The notes below the pieces were generated by a model. It saw only the letters and a program-made list of their open reading frames with translations. It was not told the origin of the DNA and searched no databases. A stretch of 64,000 nucleotides of DNA from Pirellulales bacterium (GTDB lineage: Bacteria > Planctomycetota > Planctomycetia > Pirellulales > PALSA-1355). The DNA is taken from the NCBI GenBank assembly GCA_963733035.1, contig CAVTBU010000006.1, positions 32,001-96,000 on the forward strand, in the 5' to 3' direction. The translations under genes were made by a program, and so were the position numbers. Shown here one piece after another: positions 20,662-48,471 of the stretch. Each line of letters starts with the position of its first letter. The first letter of the stretch is position 1.

Positions 20662-23550
20662 ATGGCACGTCGCGAGCGACTCTTTCCATTTGGCGTGCGC
20701 GCCCGACGCGCGATGTCAAGTTGGCGAACCCGTGGATACCTGCATGTCGAGGGATTGGAGGTCCGCCGGCTGCTGCACGCCGGTTACGATGACGGCGACA
20801 GTGATCCAGTGGTTCAGCCAATTTTTCAAGAGCCTGTTCCCGGTGACATCGTGCCGGCACTGGGGACCGAGCCCTTGCATTCGCTGTCGAGCATTCCTGC
20901 ATTGAACAGCCTGCTAGGCGCGGCGGCGTCGGTGTATCTCGACTTCGACGGGAACTACGAGCCAAGCTGGGGCAGCTACGGCAGCGTCACGACACCGGTC
21001 TACGACCGTGATGGCGATCCCAGCTCATTCAGCGATAGTGAACTATCGGCGATCGAACAAATCTGGGAACAGGTGTCCGAAGACTTTTCACCCTTTGACC
21101 TGAACGTAACGACGGTCGAACCGTCAAGCTTTGCCAACGGTGTCGCCGTGCGTGTTTCCATCGGGGGCGACGGCGCCTGGACTGGCGGATCCTATGGGGG
21201 AATCGCCTACGTCAATAGCTTTACAAACAGCGTCGTCAATACGGTTTTCGTGTTTCCCGATCACCTAAGCAACGGAAACCCGAAGTTTGTGGCCGAGGCC
21301 AGCTCGCACGAGACCGGCCACTCCTTTGGGCTCAATCACCAGAGCCAGTACAACTCGTCCGGGCAAAAGTTGGCTGAATACTATACGGGTCCCGGGAACG
21401 GCACCGCGCCGATCATGGGCAATAGCTATAGCGCTACCCGAGGGCTGTGGTGGTATGGCACTTCGTCCGAAGGCCCGGGCGTCATGCAGGACGACTTGGC
21501 GACCATTAGCCGAGCGCAGAACGGTTTTGGTTACCGACCGGACGACTATGGGAACACCGCGGCCACGGCGGCACCTATTCCCAGCCTTGATGGGCACCTG
21601 CAAGCGAGCGGCGTGATTACCACGATCAGCGACCTCGACTATTTCGCGTTTGACACCGATGCGGGGCAAGTCACACTGACTTTGACGTTGCCGGCCCAGA
21701 ATAATCTCGACGCGCGACTGGAGCTTCGCAATGCGGACGGAACGTTGATCACGTCGGACGCACCCACCGACAGCTTCGGCGCCATGATCGTGGCCGACCT
21801 GCAGGCGGGGAGCTATCGAGTCGTGGTGGCGTCACAAGGCAACTACGGTGACATCGGCCAATACACGCTGACCGCCGACGTTCTGGCCCCGTCGATTGAA
21901 GGAAACGTTTATTTTGATGCCAATCGCGACGGTAACTTTGGCCTGGACGAAAACGGGCTTGCGGGCTGGACGGTATTTGACGACGTGAACGGTAATGGAG
22001 TCTGGGACGCAACCCCGACAAGCACGATTATCGCTTCCGATACGCCACGTGCGATTCCGACACTGGGCGCAGTGCGGTCAACGATCGTTACGTCCGGGCT
22101 GGGTGGTACGATTCTCGACGTGAATGTTCGGCTGACACTCCAGCATTCGAACATTTCAAATCTCGTTCTTGCCTTGACCAAACCGGACGGGACGACGACG
22201 ACGTTAATGGCCGTCAACCCAACGGGTGGGACCAGCATGCTCGATACCCGGTTTGACGACGAAGCAGCGACGTCAATCAGCGACGCTGCCGCTCCTTATA
22301 GCGGCACATTTCGCCCGCTCGGATCGCTGGCGGGAATAATTGGCAAGAATCCTAACGGCACGTGGAAACTGCTGGTCAGCGATATCGTGGGGGGCAGCGG
22401 TGGCACGCTTGATGATTTCGAGCTGGAAATCACGACCAGCATGCCGGAACCAAGCACCACGACCGACGCGCAAGGGCGCTACCTATTTGCGTTTTCGAGT
22501 TCCGGCACGCACCACATTCGCTTGGTCAATCAGCCTGGGTACGTCCAAACGGCTCCGCCGAGTGGTGGCTATGATTTGACAGTCGATTCCGGGGTGTCGG
22601 TCGCCGGTCTCGATTTCGGTGTTGCGCTGCCGGCGGTCGTAGGACGAGCACTGTTCTATAACCATTCAAAGTTTGACGGCAACGACTCCGCCATTAGCGC
22701 CGCCGATGATCTTGCGATCGCGGCCGATAAGCAAGCTTATTTGCCGGGCAGTGGGCCGGCCACGTTTGGAAATATCTCAAGCTACACGCGCGGGATCAAT
22801 GGATTGATCGTCGACGTTGCCGGTTTGGCCGGGCCGATCACGGCCGATGATTTCCTTTTTCGCACAGGAAGCGACAATGTACCTGGAACCTGGCAGACGG
22901 CACCCGCCCCTGCCGCCGTGAGTGTTCGTCCGGGTGCCGGCATCAACGGTGCCGACCGCGTCGAGATCACCTGGGCCGACAGTCAGATTGAAAACACGTG
23001 GCTTGAAGTAACGGTGAAAGGGGACGACTTGACAGGCGGATTCGACTCGAATACTGGGCTACCCGCGTCGGATGTGTTCTACTTTGGCAACCGCGTCGGT
23101 GATACGGGTTCGGGCACTCCGACGCTGGCAGTAACGAACGCCAGTGACGAGATTGAGGCGCGAACGAACATCGGCTTTGACGTCGCGATCACAAATGCTT
23201 TCGACTTCAACCGTGATGGCCTCGTGAACGCCGGAGATCAAATCGCCGCACGACTGAACGGCGGCGTACTCACCAAGATCGACTTGCCGGCCGCTGCTTC
23301 GATTCCCGCCGGCGACGGTGGCAATGCAGTGGCTTCCGCGTTGGCGGTTACAGGCGACGATAGCAAAACACAGTCGAGTCCCGATTTAGTCGGTGCAATA
23401 CCCCATGACAATCGACGCCTAGGGCACCAGGACACGGTAGCGCACTTGATGGCGACAGACTCCGTAAAGCAATCCAATAGCCTCGTGAGTCATGAGTCGC
23501 TGACCGAATTGGCTATCGACGACGAACTGTTGGCTGACTTGCTCGGCTGA
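20662..23550 (+). CDS. Extracellular multidomain zinc metalloprotease (metzincin-like) with PPC, SdrD-B-like, proprotein convertase P and C-terminal dockerin-like domains
   Basis: Leader LHVEGLEVRRLLHA; HETGHSFGLNH with Met-turn APIMG; DLDYFAF (PPC); GNVYFDANRDG (SdrD-B-like); NGTWKLLVSD (P domain); DFNRDGLVNAGD. The start codon is uncertain (20557-20713). Confidence 0.8.
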   Translation: MARRERLFPFGVRARRAMSSWRTRGYLHVEGLEVRRLLHAGYDDGDSDPVVQPIFQEPVPGDIVPALGTEPLHSLSSIPALNSLLGAAASVYLDFDGNYEPSWGSYGSVTTPVYDRDGDPSSFSDSELSAIEQIWEQVSEDFSPFDLNVTTVEPSSFANGVAVRVSIGGDGAWTGGSYGGIAYVNSFTNSVVNTVFVFPDHLSNGNPKFVAEASSHETGHSFGLNHQSQYNSSGQKLAEYYTGPGNGTAPIMGNSYSATRGLWWYGTSSEGPGVMQDDLATISRAQNGFGYRPDDYGNTAATAAPIPSLDGHLQASGVITTISDLDYFAFDTDAGQVTLTLTLPAQNNLDARLELRNADGTLITSDAPTDSFGAMIVADLQAGSYRVVVASQGNYGDIGQYTLTADVLAPSIEGNVYFDANRDGNFGLDENGLAGWTVFDDVNGNGVWDATPTSTIIASDTPRAIPTLGAVRSTIVTSGLGGTILDVNVRLTLQHSNISNLVLALTKPDGTTTTLMAVNPTGGTSMLDTRFDDEAATSISDAAAPYSGTFRPLGSLAGIIGKNPNGTWKLLVSDIVGGSGGTLDDFELEITTSMPEPSTTTDAQGRYLFAFSSSGTHHIRLVNQPGYVQTAPPSGGYDLTVDSGVSVAGLDFGVALPAVVGRALFYNHSKFDGNDSAISAADDLAIAADKQAYLPGSGPATFGNISSYTRGINGLIVDVAGLAGPITADDFLFRTGSDNVPGTWQTAPAPAAVSVRPGAGINGADRVEITWADSQIENTWLEVTVKGDDLTGGFDSNTGLPASDVFYFGNRVGDTGSGTPTLAVTNASDEIEARTNIGFDVAITNAFDFNRDGLVNAGDQIAARLNGGVLTKIDLPAAASIPAGDGGNAVASALAVTGDDSKTQSSPDLVGAIPHDNRRLGHQDTVAHLMATDSVKQSNSLVSHESLTELAIDDELLADLLG

Positions 23551-23570
23551 CCAGACGAGCGAGCCTTTCT

Positions 23571-26500
23571 CTATTGCCACGGCGCCGTGGGCCAAAGAAT
23601 GGCCGTACCGTCGAGACTTGCGCTAAGTACGAGACGCCCGTCCGATGAAAATCCGACGGACGTCACGGCCTGGTCGTGATAGCGTAGCGTGAGTAGTTCT
23701 TTACCGCTTGTCGGTGCGCCCGAGTTCGGAGATCCAGGTGCATTTGCAATCGGTTCCGCTCGCTCCAGTTCGGCGTCCCATATTTTGACCAATCGGTCGC
23801 GGCTGCCCGTGAGGGCGCGTCGACCGTCAGGTGAAAAGCCCACGGCACCGACGATGTCCGTATGGCCTGCATAGCGCGTAAGTTTTTCATGAGTCACGGC
23901 GTCGAACACGACCGCTTCGCCATTTGCAAAACCGGCAATGATTCTTTGTCCATCGCGCGAGTACGCCACGGCATGCACGGGGGCGGTGCCGCGCCATGTG
24001 GCCACGCTGACGCCGTCGGCGACGTTCCAAATTCGAAGCGTCGAGTCGTTTCCCGCGGTCAGTACTTGATTGCCGTTCGGGGAGAAAACTGCCGCCAAGG
24101 GGGCCGCCGGCTCGTTGGGGTCTGTCGCGTGATGGAGGACATGCAGCACTTTGCGAGTGGGCCAATGCCACAGCCGCACGGTCCCGTCTTCTGAGGCTGT
24201 AAGTAGGAGGTTTTCCTCCGCCGGTGAGAATTGGACGCTGCTTAGCGGGCCGTTATGTTCGGCCGGAAGTTGCAACTCGGCCAGCCCGGTGCTGATATTC
24301 CAGATCTTGGCCCGTCGATCCGATCCCCCCGTGACGGCGAACTTGCCGCTTGCGGAAAAAGCCGTGGAGGTGATGCCGCTGTGCGGCTTGAACTGAAGTT
24401 CCGGCCGGTCGGAATTACCGGCTGGCCACAGCGCCGCGCCGTTCCCGCCGATCGTAAGCACGCCGGCGCCGCGTGGTGCATCGAGAGCCGCCCAAATTCC
24501 CTCATGGCGATTGGACAGGTCGAGATACGGCCCACCACCCGGCGCGGTCACTTCGACTCTGGCGACCAGGTCGAAGCGTCGCACGATCCCTCCTTCCGTT
24601 TCATTTGATTGAACGAGCGTGCCCGCTAGGAGAAGCCCGCGACCGTCAGTCGTGTAGGCAATGGAGGAAAGTGCCTCTGGCCCGCGATAGACTTCACCGG
24701 CGGCCGTCCCCTGGTCGATGTCCCACAGTCGGACAATACACTGTCGCGTGCCGCCTGGACTATCCTCTGACAGCGTTGCCACTTGCTGGCCGTCCGGCGA
24801 GATTGCCAGACCGATGACGGGCATATCGAACGCGTCGCGCCGTTGGAGATCTCCTAATACTAGCATCGCGGGAAGTTCTTGCCCGCTTGCAACGTCCCAC
24901 TGGGCTACCGTGCCGTCCAAACTAGACGTTAGCAGTCGCTTGCCGTCGGGCGTGAAATGGGCGGCCGTGATTCCGGCCGTGTGGCCTCTAAGCGTACGCG
25001 CCAATGTGCCGGTGGTCGTGTGCCAAAACTTGCCGGTGCCGGCCTCATCGCCAGAAAAGAGGAGTAGTCCGTCAGGTGAAATTGCCAGCGCCGTGACGAG
25101 GGCAGCATGCCCGGTTCCAAAGGCCGTATCGGCGAGCATCTGCCGCTCGGCGTGATTGCCTTCGGGATCGACTCGCCACAGTGACAACTGCACACGAGTG
25201 TCGAACGTGCGCTGTGCACGTTCGTCTGGTTCGCTATTGCCGGTTAAAATCCACCTTCCGTCGCGCGAAACGGCAATCGTTGCATTGCGGCCCGTGTGTT
25301 CGAGCGTTTGCAATTGGCTGCCAGTGGCGGCGTCCCAAATGCGGGTCGTGCGGTCACCGCCCGCGGTCAGCAACCGGCGGCCGTCGTGGAAATAGGCCGC
25401 TCGGGTTGCCAAGAAATCGTGTCCTTCGTTGAGCGTCACGACGGGCTTGCCCGTATCAGCTTGATACACACGAGCGACATGGTCGTTGCCCGCCGTGATG
25501 ACACGATTTCCATCATGCGAAAACGCGGCAGCTAATACGGCGTCGGCATGACCCACAAGCGCGACACCTTGCGGTGCCGCCTTGTAGTCCACGAGATCCC
25601 ACAACTTGATTTCTCCTTCCTGGCCGCCCGAGACAATTTGTTGACCATCCGGCGCAATTGCGCAGGATTGCACCGGTCGGCTATGACCCTTTAGTTGTGC
25701 GTGGGGCCGGCCGGTGAGAACTTCCCAAATCCGCATGGTGTTGTCGTCTCCTCCCGAGAGTACGTACTGGCCGTCGGGAGAGAATTGCACCGAGCGAACA
25801 GGACCGGCGTGTCCTTCCAACGCCCGGCTATCTTGAGGTGCGAGCGGTTGTCCGGTCGCCACGAGTTGTCTGAGATCGACGTCTGCGATCGTATCGGGTT
25901 GCCAGATGAGCACGCGCTTGTCGTAGCCGCCGGTGACCACTTGTCGACCGTCAGGGGAGAACGCTGCGGCGAAAACGGCGCCTTGATGTCCGAGGAAAAC
26001 TTTCCGTGCCACGAGGCGATCGTTAGAGCGCGCCTGCGAGGGCTCGAACTTCCAGATAATCACTCGGCCATCGTCTCCGGCCGTGACAATTTGGCTTTTA
26101 TCAGCACCAAAGGCTACCGCCCAAACCGGACCGTAGTGACCGCGTAGCGGGGAGCCTTCCGTCTCTCGTTGTTTGGTAACCTCCCACACGCGCGCCGAGC
26201 CATCGCTGCCTGCGGAAACCACCCAGCGGTCATCGGGAGAAAAGTCGAGGCTGAGTATTCGCCCAGAATGGCCAGACATTTTTCCGACCAGATCGCCATC
26301 GTGCGCATCGACAAGGTGAATTTGGCCGTCGTCGCCCGCCGCCGCGATGCGATTGCTGTTGGACGAGATGGCCGCGGCGTAGATGGGACTGCTCGATTTG
26401 CAGGCCCACTTTTGTTGCCCACTCTTGCGGTCCCAAGCATGCAGATGCGCATCATCGCCGGCCGTGACAAACCATTCGCCGTCCGGAGAAAAAGCCACGG

Positions 26501-28613
26501 CTCTCACGGCACCCTCGGCCGGGAAATCGAGACCACGGCTGCACAGTCGCTTCAGGTATCCCCATTCCCAATCGCGGAGTTCCGCCGGCTGGCAATCGGC
26601 GAGGAGCGCCGTCGCCGTATCGAAGGCGTTCTCCTCGATCTTGGCAGCGGCCATGCCGATGCGGGCCACGTAAGCCGCACGTTCTTCGCCATGACGGGCG
26701 GAAATTGCCTCGGCTTCTTTTTCCTCGGCGACGACGCGCGCCGCTTGGGCCTTGTCGCGCTCAACCTGGGCTTGACGTTGTGCCTCGTTGGCTTTTTCCC
26801 GTTCGTCGTTGGCAATTTTCGTTTGCGTTTCCGCTTCTCGGCGCTGCTCGTTGGCGATCTTCGTCTGCTCGACGGCCCGTTCTCGTTCGTCGTTGGCAAT
26901 TTTCGTTTGCGTTTCCGCTTCTTGGCGCTGCTCGTTAGCGATCACCGTTTGCTGCTCGGCGAATCGGCGTTGCTCGGCCTCGCGGTTTTTCGCCGTCGTT
27001 ACAAGCACCAAGGCGATTGAGATTACGCCGACAACCACCACCGCCAACGCGGCGGCGATCCGCTTGAATCGTGAGAGCCATTTCTGCCTGGCCGACCGTT
27101 CTTGTTGAGCGGCCTCCAGCTCGCTGCGCAATTTGATGTGCTCGGGGTTACTCGCATCGAGCAGCGAGGCTCCCAACTCAAAGTCGCCCTTGAGCTTCGC
27201 ACTCGTGGCATAAGCCAGTTGTGTTTCTCCAACCCCTGTTCGCGCCCGGGCGTTTCCGTTCCACAACGCCTGTGCTTCTTCAAATCCGAACAGGGCTCGG
27301 GCAAAGCTTTGATAATCGCCGGCCTGTTTCGCATGGGCCAACTCTTGATCGGCGCGCGTGGAGAGCGAAATACTCTCCATGTGCGAGTGATAGTCGCGGA
27401 GCGCCGATTGAAATTCCTGCACACTGGCGTAGCGATCAGCGGGTTGCGTGGCCATTGCCCGATAGGCAATATCCAGCAACTCCCCCGATTTTTCGGTCGG
27501 CTGGATTTCGTTTCGCGCGGCAGCCAGCAAGCATTCCTGCGCCGACTTGCCATGATGCGGACGTAGACTCGTGGCCACCTCGAATAGAAGTGCCCCGAGC
27601 AGATAGATGTCGCACGGTGGACCGATCAGCTCAAAGGGCCCCGTGACCATTTCCGGCGCCATGTAGGCCGGCGTGCCACCCATGCTGTCGCGCCCGGTGA
27701 CGAACTCCGCGTGACGAAAGCTGGCGGTCGCCAGGGCCAACCCCCAGTCCATCACCAGCACTTCTCCGAAGTCACCAAGCATCACATTTTCGGGCTTTAG
27801 ATCTCGATGCACGACCCCGTTGGCGTGAGCAAAAGCGACGGCATCGGCCACCTTCATGAGAATCTCTAGATTCTCGCCCATCGGTTTCTTGCCAATGACG
27901 TGCGACCAGGGTGTGCCCTGTACGCGCTTCATCGAGTAGAACAGCGCATTGTGCTCGTCCGCGCCCAGTTCGTAGATCGGCACGATGTTCGGGTGGTCGA
28001 GATCGCCGGTGACGACCGCTTCGGACAGGAACTTTTCGCGCCGCTCAGGATTGGCAGCCACTTGCGGCCGAATCATCTTGACGGCCACAAGGCGATCAAC
28101 TGACGCCTGCCGCGCAGAGTAAACCACGCCCATGCCGCCTTTGCCGATCACCTGCAGTAGCTCGTAATCGGCGCTGGTCGTAGGGCGGGGCGTCGCCTTT
28201 TCTTCCACACCGCGAAGTCCGCGGAGATTGACAACCAGTGACGATCCGGCGTCACTACCGCTGGCTGCCTGGCTTTCGACTTTGAGCGAAGAACGTTCCG
28301 TCGCGTCGCCCTCGACGGCGCCTTGCCAGGTGTTGGTGATCAGTTCAACGCTTTGTCGGGACAACTTGCGGGGGGCAATGTTGATCGATCGCTGTTCGCT
28401 TCCGTGGAACTCGAGGGTCGCGTCGGGAGTGCCTTTGTGGGTGACCGCAGGGGAAACTGGCGGTTCGCCGAACTCAGCGGTGACATCGAGCGTTGGCGCA
28501 TGCGGTCCCTCCGTTGATGTGCCGGCACCTTTGATTGCGTAGCCGCAATGCGGGCAGTTGCCGTCCTCGGGCAAACGTTTGAGGATGCTCTTGCAGCCTG
28601 GACAAATGAGCAT
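23571..28613 (-). CDS. Membrane Ser/Thr kinase with N-terminal Zn ribbon, one TM helix, coiled coil and about 20 WD40 repeats
   Basis: CPGC...CPHC; IGKGGMGVV, VAVK, HRDLKPEN, DWG, GTPAYMAPE; TM IAAALAVVVVGVISIALVLV; many GH...FSPDG...W repeats. Confidence 0.92.
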   Translation of the reverse strand: MLICPGCKSILKRLPEDGNCPHCGYAIKGAGTSTEGPHAPTLDVTAEFGEPPVSPAVTHKGTPDATLEFHGSEQRSINIAPRKLSRQSVELITNTWQGAVEGDATERSSLKVESQAASGSDAGSSLVVNLRGLRGVEEKATPRPTTSADYELLQVIGKGGMGVVYSARQASVDRLVAVKMIRPQVAANPERREKFLSEAVVTGDLDHPNIVPIYELGADEHNALFYSMKRVQGTPWSHVIGKKPMGENLEILMKVADAVAFAHANGVVHRDLKPENVMLGDFGEVLVMDWGLALATASFRHAEFVTGRDSMGGTPAYMAPEMVTGPFELIGPPCDIYLLGALLFEVATSLRPHHGKSAQECLLAAARNEIQPTEKSGELLDIAYRAMATQPADRYASVQEFQSALRDYHSHMESISLSTRADQELAHAKQAGDYQSFARALFGFEEAQALWNGNARARTGVGETQLAYATSAKLKGDFELGASLLDASNPEHIKLRSELEAAQQERSARQKWLSRFKRIAAALAVVVVGVISIALVLVTTAKNREAEQRRFAEQQTVIANEQRQEAETQTKIANDERERAVEQTKIANEQRREAETQTKIANDEREKANEAQRQAQVERDKAQAARVVAEEKEAEAISARHGEERAAYVARIGMAAAKIEENAFDTATALLADCQPAELRDWEWGYLKRLCSRGLDFPAEGAVRAVAFSPDGEWFVTAGDDAHLHAWDRKSGQQKWACKSSSPIYAAAISSNSNRIAAAGDDGQIHLVDAHDGDLVGKMSGHSGRILSLDFSPDDRWVVSAGSDGSARVWEVTKQRETEGSPLRGHYGPVWAVAFGADKSQIVTAGDDGRVIIWKFEPSQARSNDRLVARKVFLGHQGAVFAAAFSPDGRQVVTGGYDKRVLIWQPDTIADVDLRQLVATGQPLAPQDSRALEGHAGPVRSVQFSPDGQYVLSGGDDNTMRIWEVLTGRPHAQLKGHSRPVQSCAIAPDGQQIVSGGQEGEIKLWDLVDYKAAPQGVALVGHADAVLAAAFSHDGNRVITAGNDHVARVYQADTGKPVVTLNEGHDFLATRAAYFHDGRRLLTAGGDRTTRIWDAATGSQLQTLEHTGRNATIAVSRDGRWILTGNSEPDERAQRTFDTRVQLSLWRVDPEGNHAERQMLADTAFGTGHAALVTALAISPDGLLLFSGDEAGTGKFWHTTTGTLARTLRGHTAGITAAHFTPDGKRLLTSSLDGTVAQWDVASGQELPAMLVLGDLQRRDAFDMPVIGLAISPDGQQVATLSEDSPGGTRQCIVRLWDIDQGTAAGEVYRGPEALSSIAYTTDGRGLLLAGTLVQSNETEGGIVRRFDLVARVEVTAPGGGPYLDLSNRHEGIWAALDAPRGAGVLTIGGNGAALWPAGNSDRPELQFKPHSGITSTAFSASGKFAVTGGSDRRAKIWNISTGLAELQLPAEHNGPLSSVQFSPAEENLLLTASEDGTVRLWHWPTRKVLHVLHHATDPNEPAAPLAAVFSPNGNQVLTAGNDSTLRIWNVADGVSVATWRGTAPVHAVAYSRDGQRIIAGFANGEAVVFDAVTHEKLTRYAGHTDIVGAVGFSPDGRRALTGSRDRLVKIWDAELERAEPIANAPGSPNSGAPTSGKELLTLRYHDQAVTSVGFSSDGRLVLSASLDGTAILWPTAPWQ
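26790..26960 (-). repeat. Intragenic tandem repeat (42/84-nt period) encoding a 14-aa coiled-coil unit
   Basis: A 39-nt exact duplicate lies at 26800-26838 and 26884-26922; the protein reads QTVIANEQRQEAET/QTKIANDERERAVE/QTKIANEQRREAET/QTKIANDEREKANE. Confidence 0.85.
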
Positions 28614-28620
28614 TGGAGAA

Positions 28621-31600
28621 CTACCTCTCTCGGCGCAGGATGCGATGAAGCTTCGTCAACCGGCGCGACTCGTCTTCGGGCAATTGCCGGCGAAGTCGTC
28701 TCAACCGCAAACGCGGAGCCGTTAGGGCCGCGCCGGCAATCCCGAGTGGAATCGCCGCCGCGGAACGGTGCTCTTCATTTGTAGGCTCGGTGGGAGCCTC
28801 GGGCTTTGTCGTTACCGCACGCGCGATTTCGCTTGTCGCATCGTCGGCCGTGGGGATTGCCCGGGGTGGGGAATCGAGCTGGGCACCATCTTCGACTGGT
28901 GGGCCATCGACAGGCATCGCCTCCGGATCGAGTTGGATACTCCGCCCTTCATGGACGAGCACATCGACGACGAGCCGCTCAATACCATCCGGCTGAATCT
29001 GATAAATGCGGTAGTGCCCGTCGGGAAGCCTATTGAACAGCGCCCGTAAATTGTTGAGCAGTTCATCTGGTAGCGGTTCGTCGCGCGAACGTTCCTCCAA
29101 GCCGCCTGGAGTGACGACGCGCAACACCAGACGCGGTTCGGCGCCGGCGACTGAGGCAATGCGTGCTCCGCGGAAATCGATTCGCGACAGCGGGCTCGGC
29201 GGCGCGGCGCGAGGATCGATACCTCCCACGGGAACTGGAGGTGGTGGTTGTCCTCCACCTCCTCCACCGGGCGGCAAAAAAAGCGCTTGCGGAGGCGGGC
29301 GTAGCACAAACACAGTCACCTGAAACGTTCCGACGGCCACACCACCGTCATCGTCGGCCAGGCTGACTTTGACCGTGAAGGTTCCCGTGCTGGCGAACAG
29401 GTGTTGGGCGTTGAACGACCCGGACGTGAGGACGCCCGGTGAGCCCGGCGAAGTAATCGTCGCCGGTCCAGCCGTGAGAGGCGTGCCATCCTGCCAACTA
29501 ATCGAGAAGGTGAAGCGCTCGGTCACTTCGCCACCGACGTTGAGCGGGTTGTCGAAACCCGGGTCGCTGAACTTTCCAACACCCGGCAACTGTAGAAGTT
29601 GTCCAAGTGGAACGATTTGATTGGGACCCACGACGAGCGTCGGTGCGACATTATTGACCTGTACGTGCAGCGCCTGGCTGGCGGAGCGGCCATCGGAGGT
29701 CACAATTGTTACGACAACCGTGTACAACCCGTTGTCGGCGTAGGTATGCGCTCCGTTAAAGGAGCCGGTGACAATTCCCTCTTCGCCACCGCCTGGATTA
29801 ACAGTAGCCGGACCTGAATCGACCGGATTGCCATCTCCCCAATTGATGGAATAGGTATAGGAAGCCGCGCCGCCGATGCGAGGATCCGTAAACTGTCCGA
29901 TCTTGTCGACCGATAGCAGTGAGCCTTCGTTCGTGAGTTGGTTCGGCGCGGTGATCAGAATCGGTGCAACGCTACGGACGGTCACCATGAAGGTACCGAC
30001 GGACGAGCCACCGTCGTCGTCATTGACCGTGACGGTCACGGTGTAGTACCCAGCCGCCGCATAGGTGTGCGCGCCGCTGAACGAACCAGCCGTCAGCACG
30101 CCCGGTCCTCCGGGAACATTGATCGGTGCCGGTCCCGAGTTGACAGGCGAACCGTCACCCCAATCAATTGCATAGGTGAAACGTTCGGTGAGCTCCCCGC
30201 CGACATTGAGCGGATTGTCGAAACCGGGGTCGGTGAACTGGCCGATATTGGGCAGCGATAACAAGTCTCCTTCATCGACAACCTGATCGCCGGGCACAAT
30301 GAGCGTAGGCGCTACATTATTGACCGTGACTTCAAAAGTCTGCGATGTGGTGCCGCCATCGTCGTCGCTGATGGTGACGGTTACGGTATAGACGCCGTTG
30401 TCGGCATAAATATGGCTTCCGTCAAAGGAACCTTGGGTTGGCATTCCCGGCTTGCCGAATAGGTCAATCGTCGCGGGGCCCGAGTTGGTTGGGGTGCCGT
30501 CGCCCCAGTTGATTGCGTACGTGAAGGTTTCGCTGACCTCACCGCCGACGTTAAGTGGGTTATTGAAGCCCGGGTCGGTGAACTGGCCGATATTTGGCAC
30601 CGACAGGAGCGACCCTTCATTGACGACTTGATTTGGCGCGACGGCGAGCGTTGGCGCCACATTGTTGACGGTAACGTTGAAGGTCTGTTGCGCCACTCCT
30701 CCGTCATCGTCGCTCACCGTAACCGTGACGGTGTACACGCCGTTATCGGCGTACGTGTGACTGCCGTCGAAGGATCCTTGCGTCGGCACGCCCGGGCTGC
30801 CCGGTACATCGATCGTTGGGGGGCCGGAATTAAGCGGCGTGCCGTCGCCCCAGTTAATGGCGTACGTGAATTTCTCGCTGACTTCACCACCGACATTGAG
30901 CGGGTTGTTGAAGCCCGGATCGGTAAACTGTCCGATATTGGCTACGGCCAACAACGAGCCTTCATTCACGACTTGGTTGGGGGCCACGGTGAGGATCGGC
31001 GCGACATTGTGGACGACGACCGTGAAGGTTTGGGCAGCACTTCCTCCGTCGTCGTCGTTCACCGTTGCGGTGACGGTATAGATGCCATTGTCGGCATAGG
31101 TGTGACTGCCGTCGAAAGATCCTTGCGTCGGTACGCCCGGACTACCCGGCACATCAATGGTCACTGGGCCTGAGTTGACCGGGGTTCCGTCTCCCCAGTC
31201 GATGGCGTAGGTGAATTTCTCGCTGACTTCACCACCGACATTGAGCGGGTTGTCGAAGCCGGGATCCTCGATCTGTCCGATGTTTGTGATCGTCAGCAGC
31301 GAACCTTCATTGACCGACTGGTTTGGCGCGACGGTGAGGGTGGGGGCGACGTTGTTGACGCGCACTGTAAACGTTTGCGCAGCGCTACCACCGTCGTCGT
31401 CGTTGAGAGTGACTGTGACGGTATATACCCCGTTGTCTGCGTAGATGTGGCTCCCATTGAACGATCCCTGCGTGAGCACCCCCGGGCTGCCCGCGACGTC
31501 AATCGTTCCAGGACCAGAACTGACGGCCGTGCCGTCGCCCCAGTCGATCGCGTAGGTAAATTTCTCCGAGACCTCGCCGCCTACGTTAAGCGGGTTGTCA

Positions 31601-32448
31601 AAGCCCGGATCGGTGAAAGTGCCGAGATCGTTGATCGAGAGCAACGTGCCCTCGTTGGTCACTTGATCGGACACGACCGACAACGTCGGAGCTACGTTTT
31701 GTACCGAGACGGAAAACTGACCGCTGGCCGACCCGGCTTGCTCGCTGGTGATCGTAACGGTGACCGTGTAGCTGCCATTGTCGGCATAGACGTGTGCGCC
31801 GTCGAAAGATCCTTGCGTCGGCAAGCCGTCGCCACCATAGAAATCGATCGTGGCCGCACCGGTGACGACCGCCGTGCCGTCGCCCCAATCGATGCTGTAG
31901 GTGTAAACAGTCTCGTCGAACCCCGGATCGGAAAATGTGCCGATATCGGTGATGGCCAGGTTGCCCCCCTCGGCAACGTTCTGATTTCCAACAACCGTCA
32001 GCGTGAGCTGTTCCGGTGCGGCATCGACCGCCGGACTGGCTTGGGCTTGCGTCTGCACATCGCTAGCGTCGGTGACGCTGCGATTGTCGGATTCGGTCAA
32101 GTTTGACGCAGCTGGTCCTTTGGGATCTTTCGGCTGATCGCGCATGTGCGCCGGCTGGCCGGGCACTTCGCGACCGCCTGGATCGATGGGTTGTTGCTGC
32201 GCAGCATCGGTTCCCAATGGAGTCGCCGGATCGGGACTCTTGGTCGTCCCTTCGACCTGCTCCATGCCGCTGGCAGCTAGTGCTTGCGCGAGTGCCAGCG
32301 CGGCACCGGCGGATAACACGCGACGCTCTTCCAGAGGGCGCAACTCAAGCTGCGCGGCCAAGTCTTCTCGCGTAAGCAATGCGGGCCTGACGCACCAGTG
32401 GCGGCTCAGGGCGGCGCGGAGTTCGGCCAGCTGCCTTCGCGTTCGCAT
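28621..32448 (-). CDS. Large extracellular PKD-repeat (adhesin-like) protein with an LExRxLL leader
   Basis: LELRPLEERRVLSA leader; 8 Ig-like units with the WGDG and H.YADNG.Y.V.V PKD signatures; C-terminal domain ending in a hydrophobic stretch and an Arg-rich tail. Confidence 0.85.
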   Translation of the reverse strand: MRTRRQLAELRAALSRHWCVRPALLTREDLAAQLELRPLEERRVLSAGAALALAQALAASGMEQVEGTTKSPDPATPLGTDAAQQQPIDPGGREVPGQPAHMRDQPKDPKGPAASNLTESDNRSVTDASDVQTQAQASPAVDAAPEQLTLTVVGNQNVAEGGNLAITDIGTFSDPGFDETVYTYSIDWGDGTAVVTGAATIDFYGGDGLPTQGSFDGAHVYADNGSYTVTVTITSEQAGSASGQFSVSVQNVAPTLSVVSDQVTNEGTLLSINDLGTFTDPGFDNPLNVGGEVSEKFTYAIDWGDGTAVSSGPGTIDVAGSPGVLTQGSFNGSHIYADNGVYTVTVTLNDDDGGSAAQTFTVRVNNVAPTLTVAPNQSVNEGSLLTITNIGQIEDPGFDNPLNVGGEVSEKFTYAIDWGDGTPVNSGPVTIDVPGSPGVPTQGSFDGSHTYADNGIYTVTATVNDDDGGSAAQTFTVVVHNVAPILTVAPNQVVNEGSLLAVANIGQFTDPGFNNPLNVGGEVSEKFTYAINWGDGTPLNSGPPTIDVPGSPGVPTQGSFDGSHTYADNGVYTVTVTVSDDDGGVAQQTFNVTVNNVAPTLAVAPNQVVNEGSLLSVPNIGQFTDPGFNNPLNVGGEVSETFTYAINWGDGTPTNSGPATIDLFGKPGMPTQGSFDGSHIYADNGVYTVTVTISDDDGGTTSQTFEVTVNNVAPTLIVPGDQVVDEGDLLSLPNIGQFTDPGFDNPLNVGGELTERFTYAIDWGDGSPVNSGPAPINVPGGPGVLTAGSFSGAHTYAAAGYYTVTVTVNDDDGGSSVGTFMVTVRSVAPILITAPNQLTNEGSLLSVDKIGQFTDPRIGGAASYTYSINWGDGNPVDSGPATVNPGGGEEGIVTGSFNGAHTYADNGLYTVVVTIVTSDGRSASQALHVQVNNVAPTLVVGPNQIVPLGQLLQLPGVGKFSDPGFDNPLNVGGEVTERFTFSISWQDGTPLTAGPATITSPGSPGVLTSGSFNAQHLFASTGTFTVKVSLADDDGGVAVGTFQVTVFVLRPPPQALFLPPGGGGGGQPPPPVPVGGIDPRAAPPSPLSRIDFRGARIASVAGAEPRLVLRVVTPGGLEERSRDEPLPDELLNNLRALFNRLPDGHYRIYQIQPDGIERLVVDVLVHEGRSIQLDPEAMPVDGPPVEDGAQLDSPPRAIPTADDATSEIARAVTTKPEAPTEPTNEEHRSAAAIPLGIAGAALTAPRLRLRRLRRQLPEDESRRLTKLHRILRRER
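29310..32010 (-). repeat. Eight tandem PKD-like repeats, 345 nt (115 aa) period in the central units
   Basis: NVAP boundaries fall about 345 nt apart (about 31345, 31000, 30655, 30310); DPGF(D/N)NPLNVGGE recurs in 6 units. Confidence 0.85.
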
Positions 32449-32718
32449 GTAACCGAATCCTCTTCCTTCCGCCAAGCGTGGTCGGAAATTGGCGTGGTTT
32501 GCCCAAAGAACTCCATTATTTCTAGCCGCCCAAGCGGGCGTCAAACTTTCCGGGCCCACGTGGGGGTGGCGAGTTTGGGCAAAAGCCGTCGGCCTGAATG
32601 TTTTCGCGTTTTGGCCTGAGTTTATTGCGTCGGGAGGCTGTGCCGGTTGCTCGGAGATTACTGTAGATGCCGGTTAGCGGGCGTCGAATGGGAATGTAGT
32701 CGAGGGGGGATTCATCCG

Positions 32719-33588
32719 ATGCGATTTCGTTGCTCGTACCTGATCCTGGCCGTGGCCTTGACCGCGACGGGCTGCGCGGGCCAGTTAGCTGGGCCGATGG
32801 CGGCCGGCAACAGCCTGCGCATGCTGACAGCACATGTCCCGGCCGCGCCGCCTTTGCCGCCGGCGGGCGACATCCCACGTCCACCCGAGGAGCCAGAGGG
32901 GGCCCTTGTAACGGTCGGCGATACCGGTACGAACAGGTCAATCCGTGACGTAGCCACGACGGTCTCTCCAGCCGGTTTCCAGCGTCAGCCATTGTCGGCA
33001 AAGGAGCGAGCGTCGACTGTGGAGGTCGTTGCCCAGTCGGGCATTGTTCCGCCCGAGTTGGAACCCGTCGAAGAGATCGTCACTCCGATTCCAGGGCCGG
33101 AGTCTCGATTCAAATCGCAGCCGGCCGAGGACGACTTTGATCGATTTAGTCGTCAAATCGTCGATGTGCCGGTTGACATTCGTCCCAGCGAGGGCGCTAT
33201 GCCCGAAGACCGGGGTGCGGACAAGTTTGCCGCGGAGCCGATCGTGGATGAGACGCTGCCTAGCGACCGGCCGGCTGACATCTTCTGTTCGTACACGCCC
33301 TGGACGATTTGTTATCGACCGTTGTACTTCGAAGACATTGCTTTGGAGCGCTACGGCAAGAATGTCGGCTACCTGCAGACGGGGCTCTCGGGCGTCCGCT
33401 TCTTTGGCTCCGTCGCCGCTCTTCCGTATAAGATGACCCGTCGGCCGCCGCGGTCGTGTCAGTGCTCGAATGGCTTCAGCCGCCCCGGGGACTGTCCGCT
33501 ACCGGGCTATGGCAATCGTCGCTTCCAATGGGACGCGGCACTGGTCGAGGCGGCGGTCGTCACTGCGTTCGTATACATCATCCCCTAG
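32719..33588 (+). CDS. Hypothetical lipoprotein with a Cys-containing C-terminal domain
   Basis: Lipobox LTATGC, Pro-rich linker, CYRPLYFEDIALERYG...LPYKMT...CQCSNGFSRPGDCP, hydrophobic C-terminus. Confidence 0.65.
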   Translation: MRFRCSYLILAVALTATGCAGQLAGPMAAGNSLRMLTAHVPAAPPLPPAGDIPRPPEEPEGALVTVGDTGTNRSIRDVATTVSPAGFQRQPLSAKERASTVEVVAQSGIVPPELEPVEEIVTPIPGPESRFKSQPAEDDFDRFSRQIVDVPVDIRPSEGAMPEDRGADKFAAEPIVDETLPSDRPADIFCSYTPWTICYRPLYFEDIALERYGKNVGYLQTGLSGVRFFGSVAALPYKMTRRPPRSCQCSNGFSRPGDCPLPGYGNRRFQWDAALVEAAVVTAFVYIIP

Positions 33589-33624
33589 GGGAAGGTAGAT
33601 GTTTCCGGCGACGCGGACGTCCGC

Positions 33625-35839: not shown

Positions 35840-35843
35840 GGGC

Positions 35844-36722: not shown

Positions 36723-36726
36723 CGTG

Positions 36727-38725
36727 TCACCACCATAAGGACTGGACGTACTCGAACAAGTCATGCAGCCACACATATCCTAGCGAACGCCGTCCACAAT
36801 GAATCTTGGCGATTGCCGTAGTCCCTGGTCGCAACGCCGGTACAGACTTTTTGTCAAAGGAAACCATCACGAGTACCGATGGCTCTTGTTGGGCATTCAT
36901 CTCGGTCGAAGGCGCCACGTCTGTTACGCGCCCGCGGTACTCGTGTCTGGGGTCCGAGGCGAGTTTGAAGACGACGTCCAGGTCGGGCTGCAGCGAATCG
37001 CGCGCGGCGAGCACGTGTCCTGCCCGATCGTCCGCGACGTGAAGTTCCAAAACCCAGGGGCCGTCGAGATCGGCAACCGAGAGCAGTGCCTGTCCACGCT
37101 GCACGGGTCGCGAGGCCAATAGTTGCTCGATGTTCCAAGTTAGCGCCTGTCCGTCGATTGGACTTCGGATGGTCAAGTCGCGTTGCTGTTCTTCGAGGAT
37201 CGCCTGCTGGGCGACAAGCCCGGCAAGGGTGGCTTTAGTTTCTTCTTCCTCGGCTGCCAGCTCGTGGGGATCGCGACGATGTTCGTTTCCGACTGGCCGG
37301 TCTTGCAGTCGTTCGGCACGAATCGAAGCCAGTTTCTTCTCCGCCGTTTGCAGCTCTCCCAGAACGCGGTGAGCTTCGAGATCGAGTTCCGCTTTTCGCA
37401 AGATCACCAGCGGTTGTCCCGCTTGCACGGCGCGATCCGAGTTGACGAACAACTCGCTTACTACGCCGTCATCGCTGGCGAACACGTCACGCCGCAAGAG
37501 CGGTTGCAGTTCGCCTCGGGCCTCAATGTCGAAACTCGCAGGAACCAGAACCAGCGCCAACCCTGCCGCCGACAGTGCGCAAGAATAGTGACCGTCTTCG
37601 GCAGCTGTCGGGCTTCAGCGAACCAGCGGATTCTGGACAGCACCCGCCCGACGCGCGCGAGGGGCAGGCGTGAATGCCTCGTGGCGTTGTCGAGTGCGGT
37701 GGCGGCATGTCCGGTCACGGCTGCCACTTGTTGACGAAGCGCATCTCCCGCAGGGATAGCCTGGAAGCACTCGGCGAGCAAAACACCGATCACGCGCGGC
37801 GATGAGGCGCTTGTTTCGTCGAGGGGCTGGCAAAGCGGCACAATCGCGAGGGCGCGCGAGTGACTTTCTTCGAGGTAGGCATCAAGTGGCTGGGCAATTT
37901 CGTCGGGTAGATCGGCGACGCCGTCATGGTACCAAACCGGCTCTCCGCAGGCGGCAACGCGCGCGGCCAGCTGCTCGAGGGCGCGCACGAGCTTGGATCG
38001 CCGTTCCACGGTATCGACGCCGCTGATCGCCGCCGTCCGTACGCGGCGTCCGCGCGCGACCAACACGCTGACTCGGTCGGCGCCGACGAGTTGCGCGCTT
38101 CGTTCGCGATTGCATAGGCAGTTGCTTCGACGTTGAGACTGCGATGCACTCGCTGTGCGAACTGGTCATACCGCCGCCATTGACCGGCTGCCGCGCGAAG
38201 TTCGCGCAGCTCACGATGGCGATGAAAGTCTTCCGCGAGTTCCGCCATGGCGCCCAAAACGCGAACGTACGACCGCACTCGCTCGGGCGAGAACTCGCGC
38301 CTTAAGACAATTTCGAGAATGCCCGCGGTGTGGTCTCCGATCTGAAAGGGCTGAAGCACAGCGGTGCACTTTGACTCGGCGTCCGAAGGATCGGCGGCCA
38401 GCATTGCGACGCGCGGTTGGCCGCTGTCGAAGACCTGCGTGACCGGCAGCCGATGGGGTGCTAGCTGTTCGGCGTTGGAAGCTCTAGCACCCTGCGCAAG
38501 ATGGAACTGATATTCCAAGCGAATGCGATCGTCCGGGCCGCGCTGCCAGACCGCGCCGCCCAAAGCTCCAAGGGCCTGAACGAGGCGATCTAGCAGCTGG
38601 CGATAGAACTCGCCAGCTAGCAGACCCGAGCGCGATCGCGACCCAATGTCGTCGAGCAGGTCTTCGATCTGCTGCCAGTCGTCGTTGGTCAGGTCGGAGT
38701 CGACCGGGAATGGATGAGAGCTCAT
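36727..38725 (-). CDS. GAF-domain + HlyD adaptor protein, interrupted by two frameshifts near 38093 and 37578
   Basis: ORFs 37790..38725, 37461..38066 and 36727..37560 join into ...AYAIANEARQLVGADRVSV...AAISGVD...ILAALSAAGLALVLVP...IRSPIDG...LRPG..AKIHCGRRSLGYVW. Confidence 0.8.
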
Positions 38726-38887
38726 TGAGATTCAGTATAGTCGGCAAGTTGCGGAAAATGGTGTGCTTGAGAGGACGTCTTGCCGGGCCGGTTGGCGCGA
38801 AATCTGGATAAAGTTTGCCGGTTATGTCGAGATTTATAGCAGTGCGGGCGGGCGGATGGCCGATTGATGGATTTCGTGTAAGGGGGG

Positions 38888-41335
38888 TTGCGCGGGCAAT
38901 GCGCCTGCGTGGACGTTCGCGAAGGGTTCCCTTGTCTCAGGCCTGAGTTCGTTTCGAGTCAGAACGTGCCTGCTCCCCGAACAAGCTGTTCCGCATTCGT
39001 TGGGCCTGTTATTGCAAGCCGCATCGACCGGTTCGTTTGCGCGCTGCGGGCGACGGCCGCCTTTTTCGTGATGCTATCGGCGTCGGTCCTGCTGTCGGGT
39101 TGTCTGGTACTGCGACCCCCTTGCGAATTGCCGGCGGAGGACGTGTTCTTTCGCACCGTGGCCGAGGCGCCGCTGGAGGTCAAACGGGAGAATCCCGAAG
39201 GCTTCCTGCCGCTGTCGACGGCACCTCCGCTCGTGGTGGACGAGAAAGCACCTCCCCCCGCGTGGGAACTGACTCTGGCTGAGGCGGTCCGGGTGGGGCT
39301 TGAGAATTCCAAGGTGCTGCGCGATTTGGGAGGCAACGTACTGCGCCGGCCGGATTTGGCCCAGACGATTCACGATGCGGCCGTGCAAGCCACGGATCCG
39401 CGATTCGGCATGGAAGGGGCGCTGGCGGCGTTCGATGCCCAGCTTGCCACGCGTCTCTTTGCATACAAAAACGACCGTGCCTTCAACAACCTGTTTGCCG
39501 GCGGCGGTACGTTTTTCTTCAAACAGGACCTAGACAACTTCACGACAGAGCTCAGTAAGACCACCGCCACCGGTGCATCGTTCGCCGTTCGGCACAACAT
39601 CGATTACGATTCGAACAATGCTCCGGCCAACTTATTTCCCAGCTATTTCAACGCCAACTTTGAGGGCGAGTTTCGCCAGCCCCTGTTGCAGGGTGGTGGA
39701 GTCACCTTCAATCGAATTGCCGGGCCAAAGGCGAAACCCGGTCTGGTCAACGGCGTTGTCATCGCGCGCATCAACAATGACGTCAGCACGGCCACGTTTG
39801 AACTTGGCTTGCGGGACTTGATCAGCAACCTCGAAAATGGCTATTGGGATTTGTACTACGCCTATCGAGATTTGGATGCCAAAATCGCTGCTCGCGATGC
39901 CAGCCTGAAAACCTGGCGGATCATTCACGCCAACGTCGAGCAGGGGCGCGGCTACAGCAAGCTTCAGGAGGTCCAGGCGCTCGAACAGTACTACCGCTTC
40001 CAGGAAGAGGTGATCGATGCCCTGGGTGGCCGTGTTGTTGATCGCACGCGCACATTCAACGGCTCCAGCGGTGGCACCTTCCGCGGTGTCGGCGGGGTGC
40101 AAGCCGCCGAACGAAAACTCCGACTGTGGATGGGCGTGCCGATCAACGACGGTCGGCTGATACGTCCGACCGATGCGCCCCCGGAAGCGCACATCGTGTT
40201 CGACTGGAGTGTGATCATGGAAGAATCGCTGGCCACCCGTCCAGACTTGCGACGCCAGCAAGCCAAGGTGCAACGCTATCAGGCCGAATTGATTGCCAAT
40301 CGCAATTTCCTCCTGCCGCAGTTGGACATCATCGGACGGTATCGCTGGCGCGGCTACGGCCACGGTCTCATAGGCCCCCGCGACAGTCTCGATCCGATCA
40401 ATAACGCCTATGCGAACCTGGCGACCGGCATGTTCCAGGAATGGGAGCTTGGCTTCGAATACTCGATGCCGCTCGGCTTTCGACAGGGGTATGCAGCCGT
40501 CCGCAATGCCCAGGTGCAAATTGCCCGCGAGCGAGCCATTCTGGAAGAACAAGAGCGGCAGGCGATACATGATCTCACTTCGGCCTACTCCGACGCCGAG
40601 CGAGCCTACGTCCTCATGCAGGCGGCGTACAACCGACTCGCGGCCGCGGAAGAGCAGTACGAGCGGGCCGACAACGCGTTTTTCAATCTGGGGGGCAAGG
40701 TGTCGTTGGAGCTCGTCCTCGACTCTCGCATTCGTCTGGCCGAGGCAGAAACGAGTTACCACCGCAGTCGGATCGAGTATGCAATCGCCGTGAAGAACGT
40801 GCACTTCGAGAAAGGCTCGCTGCTGGATTACAACGGCGCGGCCCTGACGGATGAGGCCTTCTGCAAGGGAGCGCGCGATACGATCGTGCACCGCATTGCG
40901 TCCGCGCCAAACGAGGCACAGATCAACTACGTCATCGAAAGCCCGCTTCCCGGCACAGCGGCGCCAGAAGGTCAAACGTACGAGTCCACCGATCCAACGT
41001 CTCCGTGGCAGTCTCACGAGGCAGCATCGTACGACGAGCCGGTTGGTAGCGAAGAGGTACTAGCGTCTGCGTCGACTGCGAAAGCCGAGAGCGCGCCTGC
41101 GACTGAGTCCTCCGACACGCCGGGCGAAGTTTCGCCTTCTTCGACTTCCAAGACGACCGCGAGTTCCACGTCGCTCGTCCCCGTTGCTGTCCGGCCGGAA
41201 GCCGCGCGGACGGGACCCAAAACCGAGCGATTGCCAATTATTAAAACGCAGAAGTCGCCGGCGTCCTTCCATCAGGAGTCACTCCCACTCGATCCGTCGC
41301 AAGCGGAAGCAATCCTTGCACCGCTCGACGGGTAA
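38888..41335 (+). CDS. TolC family outer membrane channel (lipoprotein) with a low-complexity C-terminal tail
   Basis: Lipobox LLSGC, LTLAEAVRVGLENS, QPLLQG, ENGYWDLYYA, RPDL, LLPQLD, two OEP-like repeats. The real start is probably downstream of 38888. Confidence 0.85.
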   Translation: MRGQCACVDVREGFPCLRPEFVSSQNVPAPRTSCSAFVGPVIASRIDRFVCALRATAAFFVMLSASVLLSGCLVLRPPCELPAEDVFFRTVAEAPLEVKRENPEGFLPLSTAPPLVVDEKAPPPAWELTLAEAVRVGLENSKVLRDLGGNVLRRPDLAQTIHDAAVQATDPRFGMEGALAAFDAQLATRLFAYKNDRAFNNLFAGGGTFFFKQDLDNFTTELSKTTATGASFAVRHNIDYDSNNAPANLFPSYFNANFEGEFRQPLLQGGGVTFNRIAGPKAKPGLVNGVVIARINNDVSTATFELGLRDLISNLENGYWDLYYAYRDLDAKIAARDASLKTWRIIHANVEQGRGYSKLQEVQALEQYYRFQEEVIDALGGRVVDRTRTFNGSSGGTFRGVGGVQAAERKLRLWMGVPINDGRLIRPTDAPPEAHIVFDWSVIMEESLATRPDLRRQQAKVQRYQAELIANRNFLLPQLDIIGRYRWRGYGHGLIGPRDSLDPINNAYANLATGMFQEWELGFEYSMPLGFRQGYAAVRNAQVQIARERAILEEQERQAIHDLTSAYSDAERAYVLMQAAYNRLAAAEEQYERADNAFFNLGGKVSLELVLDSRIRLAEAETSYHRSRIEYAIAVKNVHFEKGSLLDYNGAALTDEAFCKGARDTIVHRIASAPNEAQINYVIESPLPGTAAPEGQTYESTDPTSPWQSHEAASYDEPVGSEEVLASASTAKAESAPATESSDTPGEVSPSSTSKTTASSTSLVPVAVRPEAARTGPKTERLPIIKTQKSPASFHQESLPLDPSQAEAILAPLDG

Positions 41336-42272: not shown

Positions 42273-42543
42273 GACTGTATCTGTGTCAAATGGCCACACT
42301 TGAGGGGTCAAGTCATCGTTCGCCATGTTGAAGCGCTCAGCCTAGCGGCGCGCGATCAGCGCAGCAACTTCCCAGGCTAGGCAACAATGCAAGGCGATGA
42401 GAGTTCCCGAGAATCACGCAATCAACAGCGGCAGTGGACACGACCGCGGGGCGTGTAAGGCTCTCAGCAAAGAAGCATTGGCATTCCGAAGATTGAACAT
42501 CGACAGCTGCCACAGGCAGCATCGGACACCGATAACGGATTCA

Positions 42544-47078: not shown

Positions 47079-47106
47079 CAATCCATCCTTTCCAATACGT
47101 TGAGTT

Positions 47107-48425: not shown

Positions 48426-48471
48426 GGGGTGTGCTCCTGCACGGAGTGGCGATTGGCTGACTGGCGTTCCG

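Follow-up and report, generated by a model that had tools for sequence, protein, structure and literature searches.

The closest described relative of the locus reported here is a widespread module, with planctomycetes among its hosts, recognized in silico by Kamneva, Poudel and Ward in 2015 (PMC4452313), in which a secondary SecA_DEAD protein is joined by a Peptidase_M50/HlyD protein, an HlyD protein and a GAF/HlyD protein, with or without an OEP protein. In the accessible part of that paper the short SecA is proposed to be the ATPase, the M50 protein is proposed for the part in the membrane, a regulatory role is suggested for the GAF protein, and the parts of the module, the secondary SecA included, can be unlinked. 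The same part of the paper names no cargo, leader or recognition domain of the kind found in enzymes for ribosomally synthesized and post-translationally modified peptides (RiPP recognition element, RRE), and its experiments are confined to re-analysed expression data. We analysed a 64,000-nucleotide stretch of DNA from a Pirellulales bacterium (hereafter the window; G000:C6:32001-96000) that contains a TolC gene beside an operon of three adaptor genes, and we conclude that this locus is very probably a TolC-linked paralog of the 2015 module, with the short SecA and a DUF3467 protein encoded elsewhere in the genome.

The genome (6.65 Mb in 10 contigs, estimated 92% complete) encodes an M50+HlyD protein, a GAF+HlyD protein, a separate HlyD adaptor and, away from these, a shortened SecA. 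It therefore shares with the module of PMC4452313, as far as the accessible part describes it, the four protein types plus OEP, the lack of an ABC (ATP-binding cassette) transporter, a SecA that may lie elsewhere and a planctomycete host; genes of the PSCyt/PSD1/DUF1501 types, which are planctomycete markers, lie in the window. The present case differs in that TolC lies beside the operon, the SecA gene lies apart from it, and the genome has another paralogous operon, which is intact.

Two other kinds of system resemble the locus in part. Like classical type I secretion (HlyB-HlyD-TolC; LapB-LapC-LapE), it combines an HlyD adaptor with TolC, and its presumed cargo consists of large surface proteins with repeats; however, there is no ABC transporter, the adaptors are three rather than one, and the presumed signal is N-terminal instead of C-terminal. 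Like the RiPP leader peptidases of families NF041824 and NF058609, its M50 protein starts with an RRE-like fold that precedes an HExxH membrane domain of the M50 type, but it scores below both family cut-offs, is fused to a periplasmic HlyD part and has no RiPP genes nearby. As for the signal, the accessible part of PMC8567305, citing Studholme 2004, gives the motif RRLxxExLExRxLLA (PF07595) as a presumed novel N-terminal export signal with no route assigned, counts 52 motif proteins in Tuwongella, among them 8 of the 10 longest, and makes no mention of SecA, HlyD or TolC. Two proteins encoded in the window, discussed below, fit the core of this motif and fall below detection by PF07595. We found no literature linking the leader motif to the module, most subscription journals lying outside the coverage of the search; what was searched agrees with the statement of a first-pass annotation of the window, made by a model from the letters alone, that no mechanism has been worked out.

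The TolC gene and the adaptor and protease operon

The first-pass annotation described a TolC gene divergent from a tightly spaced operon with 4-nt gaps, and both Pfam matches and a reading of the spacers confirm this arrangement, which comprises the following genes.

38888..41335, plus strand: TolC-like outer-membrane channel (OEP), 815 aa; PF02321 7.3e-19, TIGR01844 7.2e-10 (below cut-off)
38725 to 36727, minus strand: first operon gene, a GAF-GAF-transmembrane-HlyD adaptor; HlyD_3 6.2e-12, weak GAF matches 0.0046 and 0.0085
36722 to 35844, minus strand: second operon gene, a plain HlyD-type periplasmic adaptor, 292 aa; HlyD_3 2.9e-21, Biotin_lipoyl_2 4.6e-8, TIGR01730 2.7e-31
35839 to 33625, minus strand: third operon gene, a fusion of an RRE (PqqD-like) domain, an M50 intramembrane metalloprotease and HlyD; PF02163 2.8e-9, with HlyD_D23 and HlyD_3 on the second frame

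A spacer of 162 nt separates the TolC gene from the operon, and both spacers within the operon are exactly 4 nt long (CACG and GCCC). The TolC-like protein carries a lipobox, LLSGC, at its N-terminus and a low-complexity tail at its C-terminus. In the product of the first operon gene, two GAF-like regions are combined with a single membrane span and an adaptor part of the HlyD type. The plain HlyD protein scores 108.7 bits against TIGR01730, above the cut-off of 94.9, and its N-terminus, MARALLTIAISSTLVWASARA, is a signal or an anchor. The M50-HlyD protein reaches 37.1 bits with PF02163 (cut-off 27.2), both of its catalytic motifs are intact (HELGH at residues 211-215 and NANPLLRYDG, of the form NxxPxxxxDG, at 305-314), and with about 7 hydrophobic segments it is a multi-pass membrane protein; against its nearest homolog, P0004 (738 aa), it is full-length. 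A PF07595-like match within its coiled coil (E 0.073) was judged to be due to chance. All three gene types that had been named for the operon are therefore real, but frame breaks in the GAF-HlyD and M50-HlyD genes had been silently read through, a matter to which we return below.

The operon was compared with 80 related planctomycete loci, placed on a FastTree tree with local support values only. The order GAF-HlyD, HlyD, M50-HlyD is kept in 64/80 of them, and a divergent TolC stands at the same place in 5/80 (L009, L010, L011, L026 and L048). Within the same genome, an intact paralogous operon lies at C6:494910-500217, where the GAF-HlyD protein has 672 aa and a GAF match of 4.3e-9, and a TolC paralog is found on contig C5. 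Two further observations concern the M50-HlyD gene and its surroundings. In the sister clade of the window protein (L013, L024, L025, L032, L074, L078 and L083), GAF-HlyD is missing upstream, also in loci whose sequence extends 8-10 kb in that direction, and L083 keeps the plain HlyD only; in this clade the fusion protein may occur as a solo form. Also, a protein of about 1100-1200 aa with a weak DUF748 match is encoded about 1 kb downstream of M50-HlyD in 19/80 loci (e.g. L017:12567-16223), and a DUF748-like protein is encoded near the paralogous operon of the present genome as well (L005:8659-12177).

The label PqqD-like, given to M50-HlyD in the first-pass annotation, holds. A model of residues 1-140, built with 76 sequences (predicted local distance difference test, pLDDT, 79.5), has a winged-helix core in which a three-strand sheet and three helices match solved RREs; Foldseek searches with this model rank RiPP-enzyme folds at the top, yet at E 5e-3 or weaker. 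PF05402 matches 6/16 M50-HlyD homologs, and the RRE and M50 region together match NF041824, the daptide HExxH protease family, at 7.6e-55. On this model, the N-terminal domain is a predicted leader-recognition (RRE/PqqD-like) element.

The same evidence bears on a different reading of the locus, namely a RiPP-like system for small peptides in which the RRE-M50 protein would trim a short peptide leader, the adaptors and TolC would export the peptide, and the large LExRxLL proteins would be bystanders. Among curated families, those nearest to the M50 part are indeed RiPP leader peptidases, and the RRE fold is that of RiPP enzymes. However, both family matches remain below their curated cut-offs (NF041824, 186.6 bits against 300; NF058609, the YydH/LiaK family, 7.2e-12 and 45.5 bits against 225), no RiPP-modifying enzyme family occurs among the Pfam matches of the 45 open reading frames (ORFs) scanned in the window, each of at least 180 aa, or in the related-locus neighbours that were checked, and the recurrent neighbours are SecA-like proteins, DUF3467 and large proteins rather than short precursors, short ORFs not having been searched systematically. 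Because of the unlinked SecA ortholog described below, the recurrent DUF3467 gene and the lack of RiPP genes, we regard a RiPP-type peptide exporter as clearly unlikely.

A short SecA encoded on another contig

Six-frame profile searches with ABC_tran, ACR_tran and MFS_1 gave no match in the window, and none of these families appears among the 45 Pfam-scanned ORFs, confirming that the 64 kb encode no ABC, resistance-nodulation-division (RND) or major facilitator superfamily (MFS) pump. On the whole of contig C6, the nearest ABC_tran match is at C6:135119 and the nearest MFS_1 match at C6:103823, and ACR_tran is absent. Two SecA_DEAD genes are present in the genome, one for a canonical SecA of 1054 aa on contig C10 and one for a much shorter protein:

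G000:C7:169949-171955: short (truncated) SecA, 668 aa; SecA_DEAD motor, preprotein cross-linking domain (PF01043 1.3e-29) and second P-loop domain, without the C-terminal domains

SecA copies linked to operons of this kind share 56-65% identity with the short protein, canonical SecA shares 37-42%, and a short SecA gene lies directly upstream of the operon in 9/80 related loci. Judging from its sequence, the C7 protein is likely the motor of the module.

The distribution of the second SecA was followed in 150 other Planctomycetota genomes with a completeness of at least 85%. M50-HlyD is present in 40/150 of them (E<=1e-20), and at least two SecA_DEAD matches occur in 28 of these 40 genomes vs 5 of the 110 without M50-HlyD, an odds ratio of 49 in which related genomes do not count as independent. 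SecA_DEAD match counts were used because the SecA2 protein as query, at E<=1e-170, gave only 5 genomes; several of the paired matches are adjacent on one contig, and some double counts, with low best E-values, are probably one gene in two pieces (G013, G015, G038 and G052). The in-silico finding on the secondary SecA in the accessible part of PMC4452313 is thereby reproduced with a larger set of genomes.

These results change in part how the pathway had first been pictured. It had been called ABC-less, with the multi-pass M50-HlyD protein as its inner-membrane component, and ABC or SecA-like partners had been suggested as something to look for in homologous loci. No ABC transporter accompanies the operon, but the pathway is not motor-less, the truncated SecA on C7 being the candidate; likewise, M50-HlyD has the membrane segments and intact motifs expected of an inner-membrane component, while a candidate for the motor is encoded elsewhere. 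In the related loci a conventional pump is not a consistent partner, since an ABC-like ORF is found in the flank of 4/80 and a piece of an RND gene in 1/80, with no fixed position, and the SecA-like partner is seen in the 9/80 mentioned above.

DUF3467 behaves in a comparable way. Its gene follows directly after M50-HlyD in 25/80 related loci, and the present genome has a single copy, on contig C5, unlinked to the window operon; the protein could be a cargo chaperone. The locus is therefore not self-sufficient, since neither the likely motor nor DUF3467 is encoded within it.

Leader-bearing proteins and a possible export route

Two large proteins encoded next to the operon had been singled out in the first-pass annotation for an Arg-rich leader ending in LExRxL.

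28621..32448, minus strand: PKD/He_PIG surface-type protein, 1275 aa; PKD 6e-45, 7 stretches; leader M...LELRPLEERRVLSAG
20662..23550, plus strand: reprolysin-like metalloprotease with P-domain, 962 aa; P_proprotein 1e-10, Reprolysin_3 3.9e-5; leader M...LHVEGLEVRRLLHAG

Both leaders read as claimed, LHVEGLEVRRLLHAG in the metalloprotease and LELRPLEERRVLSAG in the PKD protein, and a Kyte-Doolittle scan of the first 150 aa (19-residue window, threshold 1.6) shows no hydrophobic segment in either protein; in the PKD protein the leader is followed by an Ala/Leu-rich stretch. The eight PKD repeats that had been counted become 7 PKD stretches by Pfam, which finds no RTX or HemolysinCabind family in either protein.

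The two leaders belong to a wider set in the same genome. Among ORFs of at least 300 aa, 56/91 matches to the pattern LE.R.[LVIMF][LMFIV] fall in the first 150 residues. When the pattern was required to follow a basic stretch, 41 ORFs of at least 400 aa were obtained, of which 39 were kept, both window proteins included, and two were dropped as false (C7:54207 and C6:578301). Overall, about 40 large proteins of the genome carry ExLExRx[LM]L some 30-60 residues past a basic N-terminus, most of them with no hydrophobic core in the leader. In a leave-one-out position-specific scoring matrix (PSSM), family members score 15.7-37 bits, the metalloprotease 21.2 and the PKD protein 15.8; internal windows reach the level of the metalloprotease in 0/45,925 cases and that of the PKD protein in 1/45,925. 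This matrix replaced an hmmsearch leader profile whose scores for the window leaders were unstable. From these scores it is plausible that the window proteins are weak members of the leader family.

Several observations connect such proteins with the module. The genes for the PKD protein, a lipoprotein and a kinase (the latter two described below) keep their synteny within the clade of the window (L009, L011, L012 and L014; 100% local support), and the core of the leader, LE[EQ]R[RY]VL, is kept in the PKD orthologs of these loci while the flanks diverge. On the next branch, L048 has a homolog of the lipoprotein and, at the PKD position, a different protein with Calx-beta domains and the same leader. 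For each of the two operons of the genome, 2 leader genes lie no farther away than 15 kb, where at least 2 would be expected at random with a probability of 0.038 per operon, and on C5 the DUF3467 gene (region G000:C5:689175-697183) lies 516 nt upstream of a leader ORF of 2412 aa (random chance 0.033). From synteny and leader, the PKD protein is most likely the best local cargo candidate. The metalloprotease is a second candidate, suggested by its leader; the related loci yielded no ortholog of it, and in most of them the flanking sequence stops short of that position.

Co-occurrence of the module with leader proteins, on which the original proposal had been staked, is borne out statistically, but it is leaky and does not extend to adjacency over the 80 loci. 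Leader profile A2, made from the window's genome, matches 25/150 other genomes, 14 of them with M50-HlyD (both 14, M50 only 26, leader only 11, neither 99; odds ratio 4.8, Fisher p 8e-4). Both types of error are expected in these counts because the profile was trained on one genome and is insensitive elsewhere (40 matches at home, 1-3 abroad).

A number of results weigh against the link between module and leader. Near the 80 loci, leader ORFs are not enriched (11/960 vs 51/4258 genome-wide, at least 300 aa), and adjacency is mostly confined to one clade, being sporadic elsewhere (L035, L047, L051, L086 and the genome's own paralogous operon). Leader-like matches occur without M50-HlyD (E<=1e-20) in 11 genomes, and when 10 of the 11 were rechecked at E<=1e-3, G023 being left out, they gave matches to the HlyD part only; conversely, 26 genomes have M50-HlyD and no leader match. 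With PF07595 as the marker the association is not significant (5/10 vs 35/140, p 0.13), this family being too insensitive for phyletic use, with 10/150 genomes matched. The window leaders themselves stand at the low end of the PSSM range of their family, and the 32-column leave-out hmmsearch profile gave 8.2 bits for one of them and none for the other, an unstable result. The two proteins had moreover been said to match the planctomycete extracellular and LEPR-XLL motifs, and the corresponding models miss both: PF07595 has 34 matches in the genome at E<=1, neither window protein among them, and none on the window N-termini at E<=10, and NF012209 (LEPR-8K), the curated LEPR model, has 0 matches genome-wide at E<=1 and none on the N-termini at E<=10. 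Finally, no RNA sequencing run containing the stretch is listed.

Taking into consideration both sides, we regard the proposed role of the module in the recognition, clipping and export of ExLExRxLL proteins, which is drawn from sequence, as close to evenly balanced. The route would be as follows: (i) the cytoplasmic RRE of M50-HlyD would bind the short N-terminal ExLExRxLL leader of a large surface protein; (ii) the truncated SecA encoded on C7, which keeps the motor and preprotein-binding domains, would drive the unfolded chain; (iii) the M50 site would clip the leader at the inner membrane; (iv) the periplasmic HlyD domains of the three adaptors (GAF-fused, plain and M50-fused) would bridge to TolC, so that export would take place in one step; and (v) the cytoplasmic GAF pair would gate or regulate the process. 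The syntenic PKD protein would be the likeliest local cargo, and the approximately 40 leader proteins encoded elsewhere in the genome may share the route.

One-step passage is the part of this route that can be replaced by a two-step process, in which the short SecA would deliver the chain to SecYEG, M50-HlyD would act as a leader peptidase only, and the adaptors and TolC would take the protein across the outer membrane or merely anchor it. The preprotein cross-linking domain retained by the short SecA fits this arrangement, as does the hydrophobic stretch that follows PKD-type leaders in the orthologs, and we know of no M50 site-2 protease that serves as a protein-conducting channel, which also tells against the one-step route itself. 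On the other hand, most leaders in the genome have no hydrophobic core, and three adaptors, with cytoplasmic RRE and GAF domains fused to them through a membrane span, resemble a contiguous envelope-spanning complex. We consider the two-step process unlikely.

It is also conceivable that the locus exports no protein and is an envelope-spanning device for signalling or small-molecule efflux, in which site-2 proteolysis would be coupled to GAF sensing. Site-2 proteases and GAF domains are classic signalling parts, and the regulatory role suggested for the GAF protein in the accessible part of PMC4452313 points the same way. Such a device would, however, account neither for the RRE fold nor for a SecA-like partner that has a preprotein-binding domain, nor for TolC and three adaptors, and no anti-sigma/sigma pair is present among the Pfam matches of the window; we hold it to be very improbable.

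Reading frames, surrounding genes and significance

The operon in the window is interrupted by three frame breaks. The GAF-HlyD gene runs over three frames (38725 to ~38093, ~38093 to ~37590 and ~37584 to 36727), and the M50-HlyD gene over two, with the break near 34170-34178. None of the three lies at a homopolymer. Such breaks are frequent in this 10-contig assembly, where 7/34 PSCyt-PSD1 genes are split by a frame change, 2 of them within the window, and several RND genes are also in pieces; the indel rate of the assembly is probably about one per 10 kb. In the window the two cases are at 3329-5805 (minus strand) and 16399-19657 (minus strand), where PSD1 and the PSCyt1/PSCyt2 domains, as a rule parts of a single protein, fall on two overlapping frames (~4468-4588 and ~17801-17874, respectively).

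Two causes were weighed for the breaks in the operon. The window copy may be dead, that is, a decaying pseudogene operon beside which only the intact paralog at G000:C6:494910-500217 would be functional. At the genome-wide rate ~0.46 breaks would be expected in 5.1 kb, so that three are an excess (Poisson p 0.011), which counts against a working window copy, and a contig of a ~96%-identical relative (X2) holds one extra, frame-keeping base at the 38091-38093 break. Conservation, however, is equal on both sides of the breaks with no residues lost: P0004 aligns to M50-HlyD with 77% identity before the break and 78% after it, and the GAF-HlyD ortholog of L011 (694 aa) is residue-contiguous across the three frames, with 43%, 56% and 61% identity by domain. 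For this reason assembly error is favoured over decay, and it is likely, though unproven, because frame breaks are common genome-wide; decay is rather unlikely. A near-identical sequencing run (X1) spans none of the three sites, and X2 spans one. For the window locus, the reading frames are thus doubtful, and an intact paralog exists.

The neighbours named in the first-pass annotation, a lipobox protein, the PKD protein, a kinase with WD40 repeats and the reprolysin-like metalloprotease, are all confirmed by Pfam or by the sequence itself. Besides the two cargo candidates, the genes flanking the operon and TolC are the following.

32719..33588, plus strand: lipobox protein (LTATGC) of unknown family; no Pfam or NCBIfam match
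23571..28613, minus strand: Ser/Thr kinase with about 15 WD40 repeats, 1680 aa; Pkinase 2.2e-35, WD40 2e-140
41340..42326, minus strand: PEP-CTERM protein, beyond TolC; TIGR02595 19 bits against a cut-off of 16

Homologs of the lipobox protein are encoded just downstream of the operon in L009, L011, L012 and L014 (36-56% identity) and in L048 (35%); the conserved C-terminal half is Cys-rich, and an Atlas search returned only planctomycete clusters without a name (score 0.89). Orthologs of the kinase-WD40 protein follow the PKD gene in L009 and L011, which makes it a syntenic neighbour. PEP-CTERM orthologs stand at the same place in L009, L010 and L011 (46-48% identity).

Farther away in the window, a 1240-aa ORF (6877-10599, minus strand) joins a Ser/Thr kinase (1.4e-30) to Tubulin_2 (PF13809, 2.6e-38), an unusual pairing. 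A tight run of sugar-phosphate genes on the minus strand (45426-51752) encodes PGI, a ROK kinase that is possibly frame-broken (~47100-47650), a histidine phosphatase, RpiA, G6PD and 6PGD, and an 834-aa ORF at 58480-60984 (minus strand) has no Pfam family.

In planctomycetes and several other phyla, very large surface proteins number in the dozens and bear at their N-terminus a motif that has been called a putative export signal since 2004. We tentatively propose that the short SecA, RRE-M50-HlyD, GAF-HlyD, HlyD, DUF3467 and TolC may together form a distinct protein secretion pathway, the export route for about 40 ExLExRxLL surface proteins per planctomycete genome, among them the largest proteins of these bacteria; as part of this same proposal, and with the same reserve, a SecA-type motor would replace the ABC transporter, and an RRE-guided protease would be both signal receptor and signal peptidase. 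If this is true, the system would represent a new principle of secretion, in which TolC is combined with a SecA-like motor and with a leader receptor and protease of the RiPP type.

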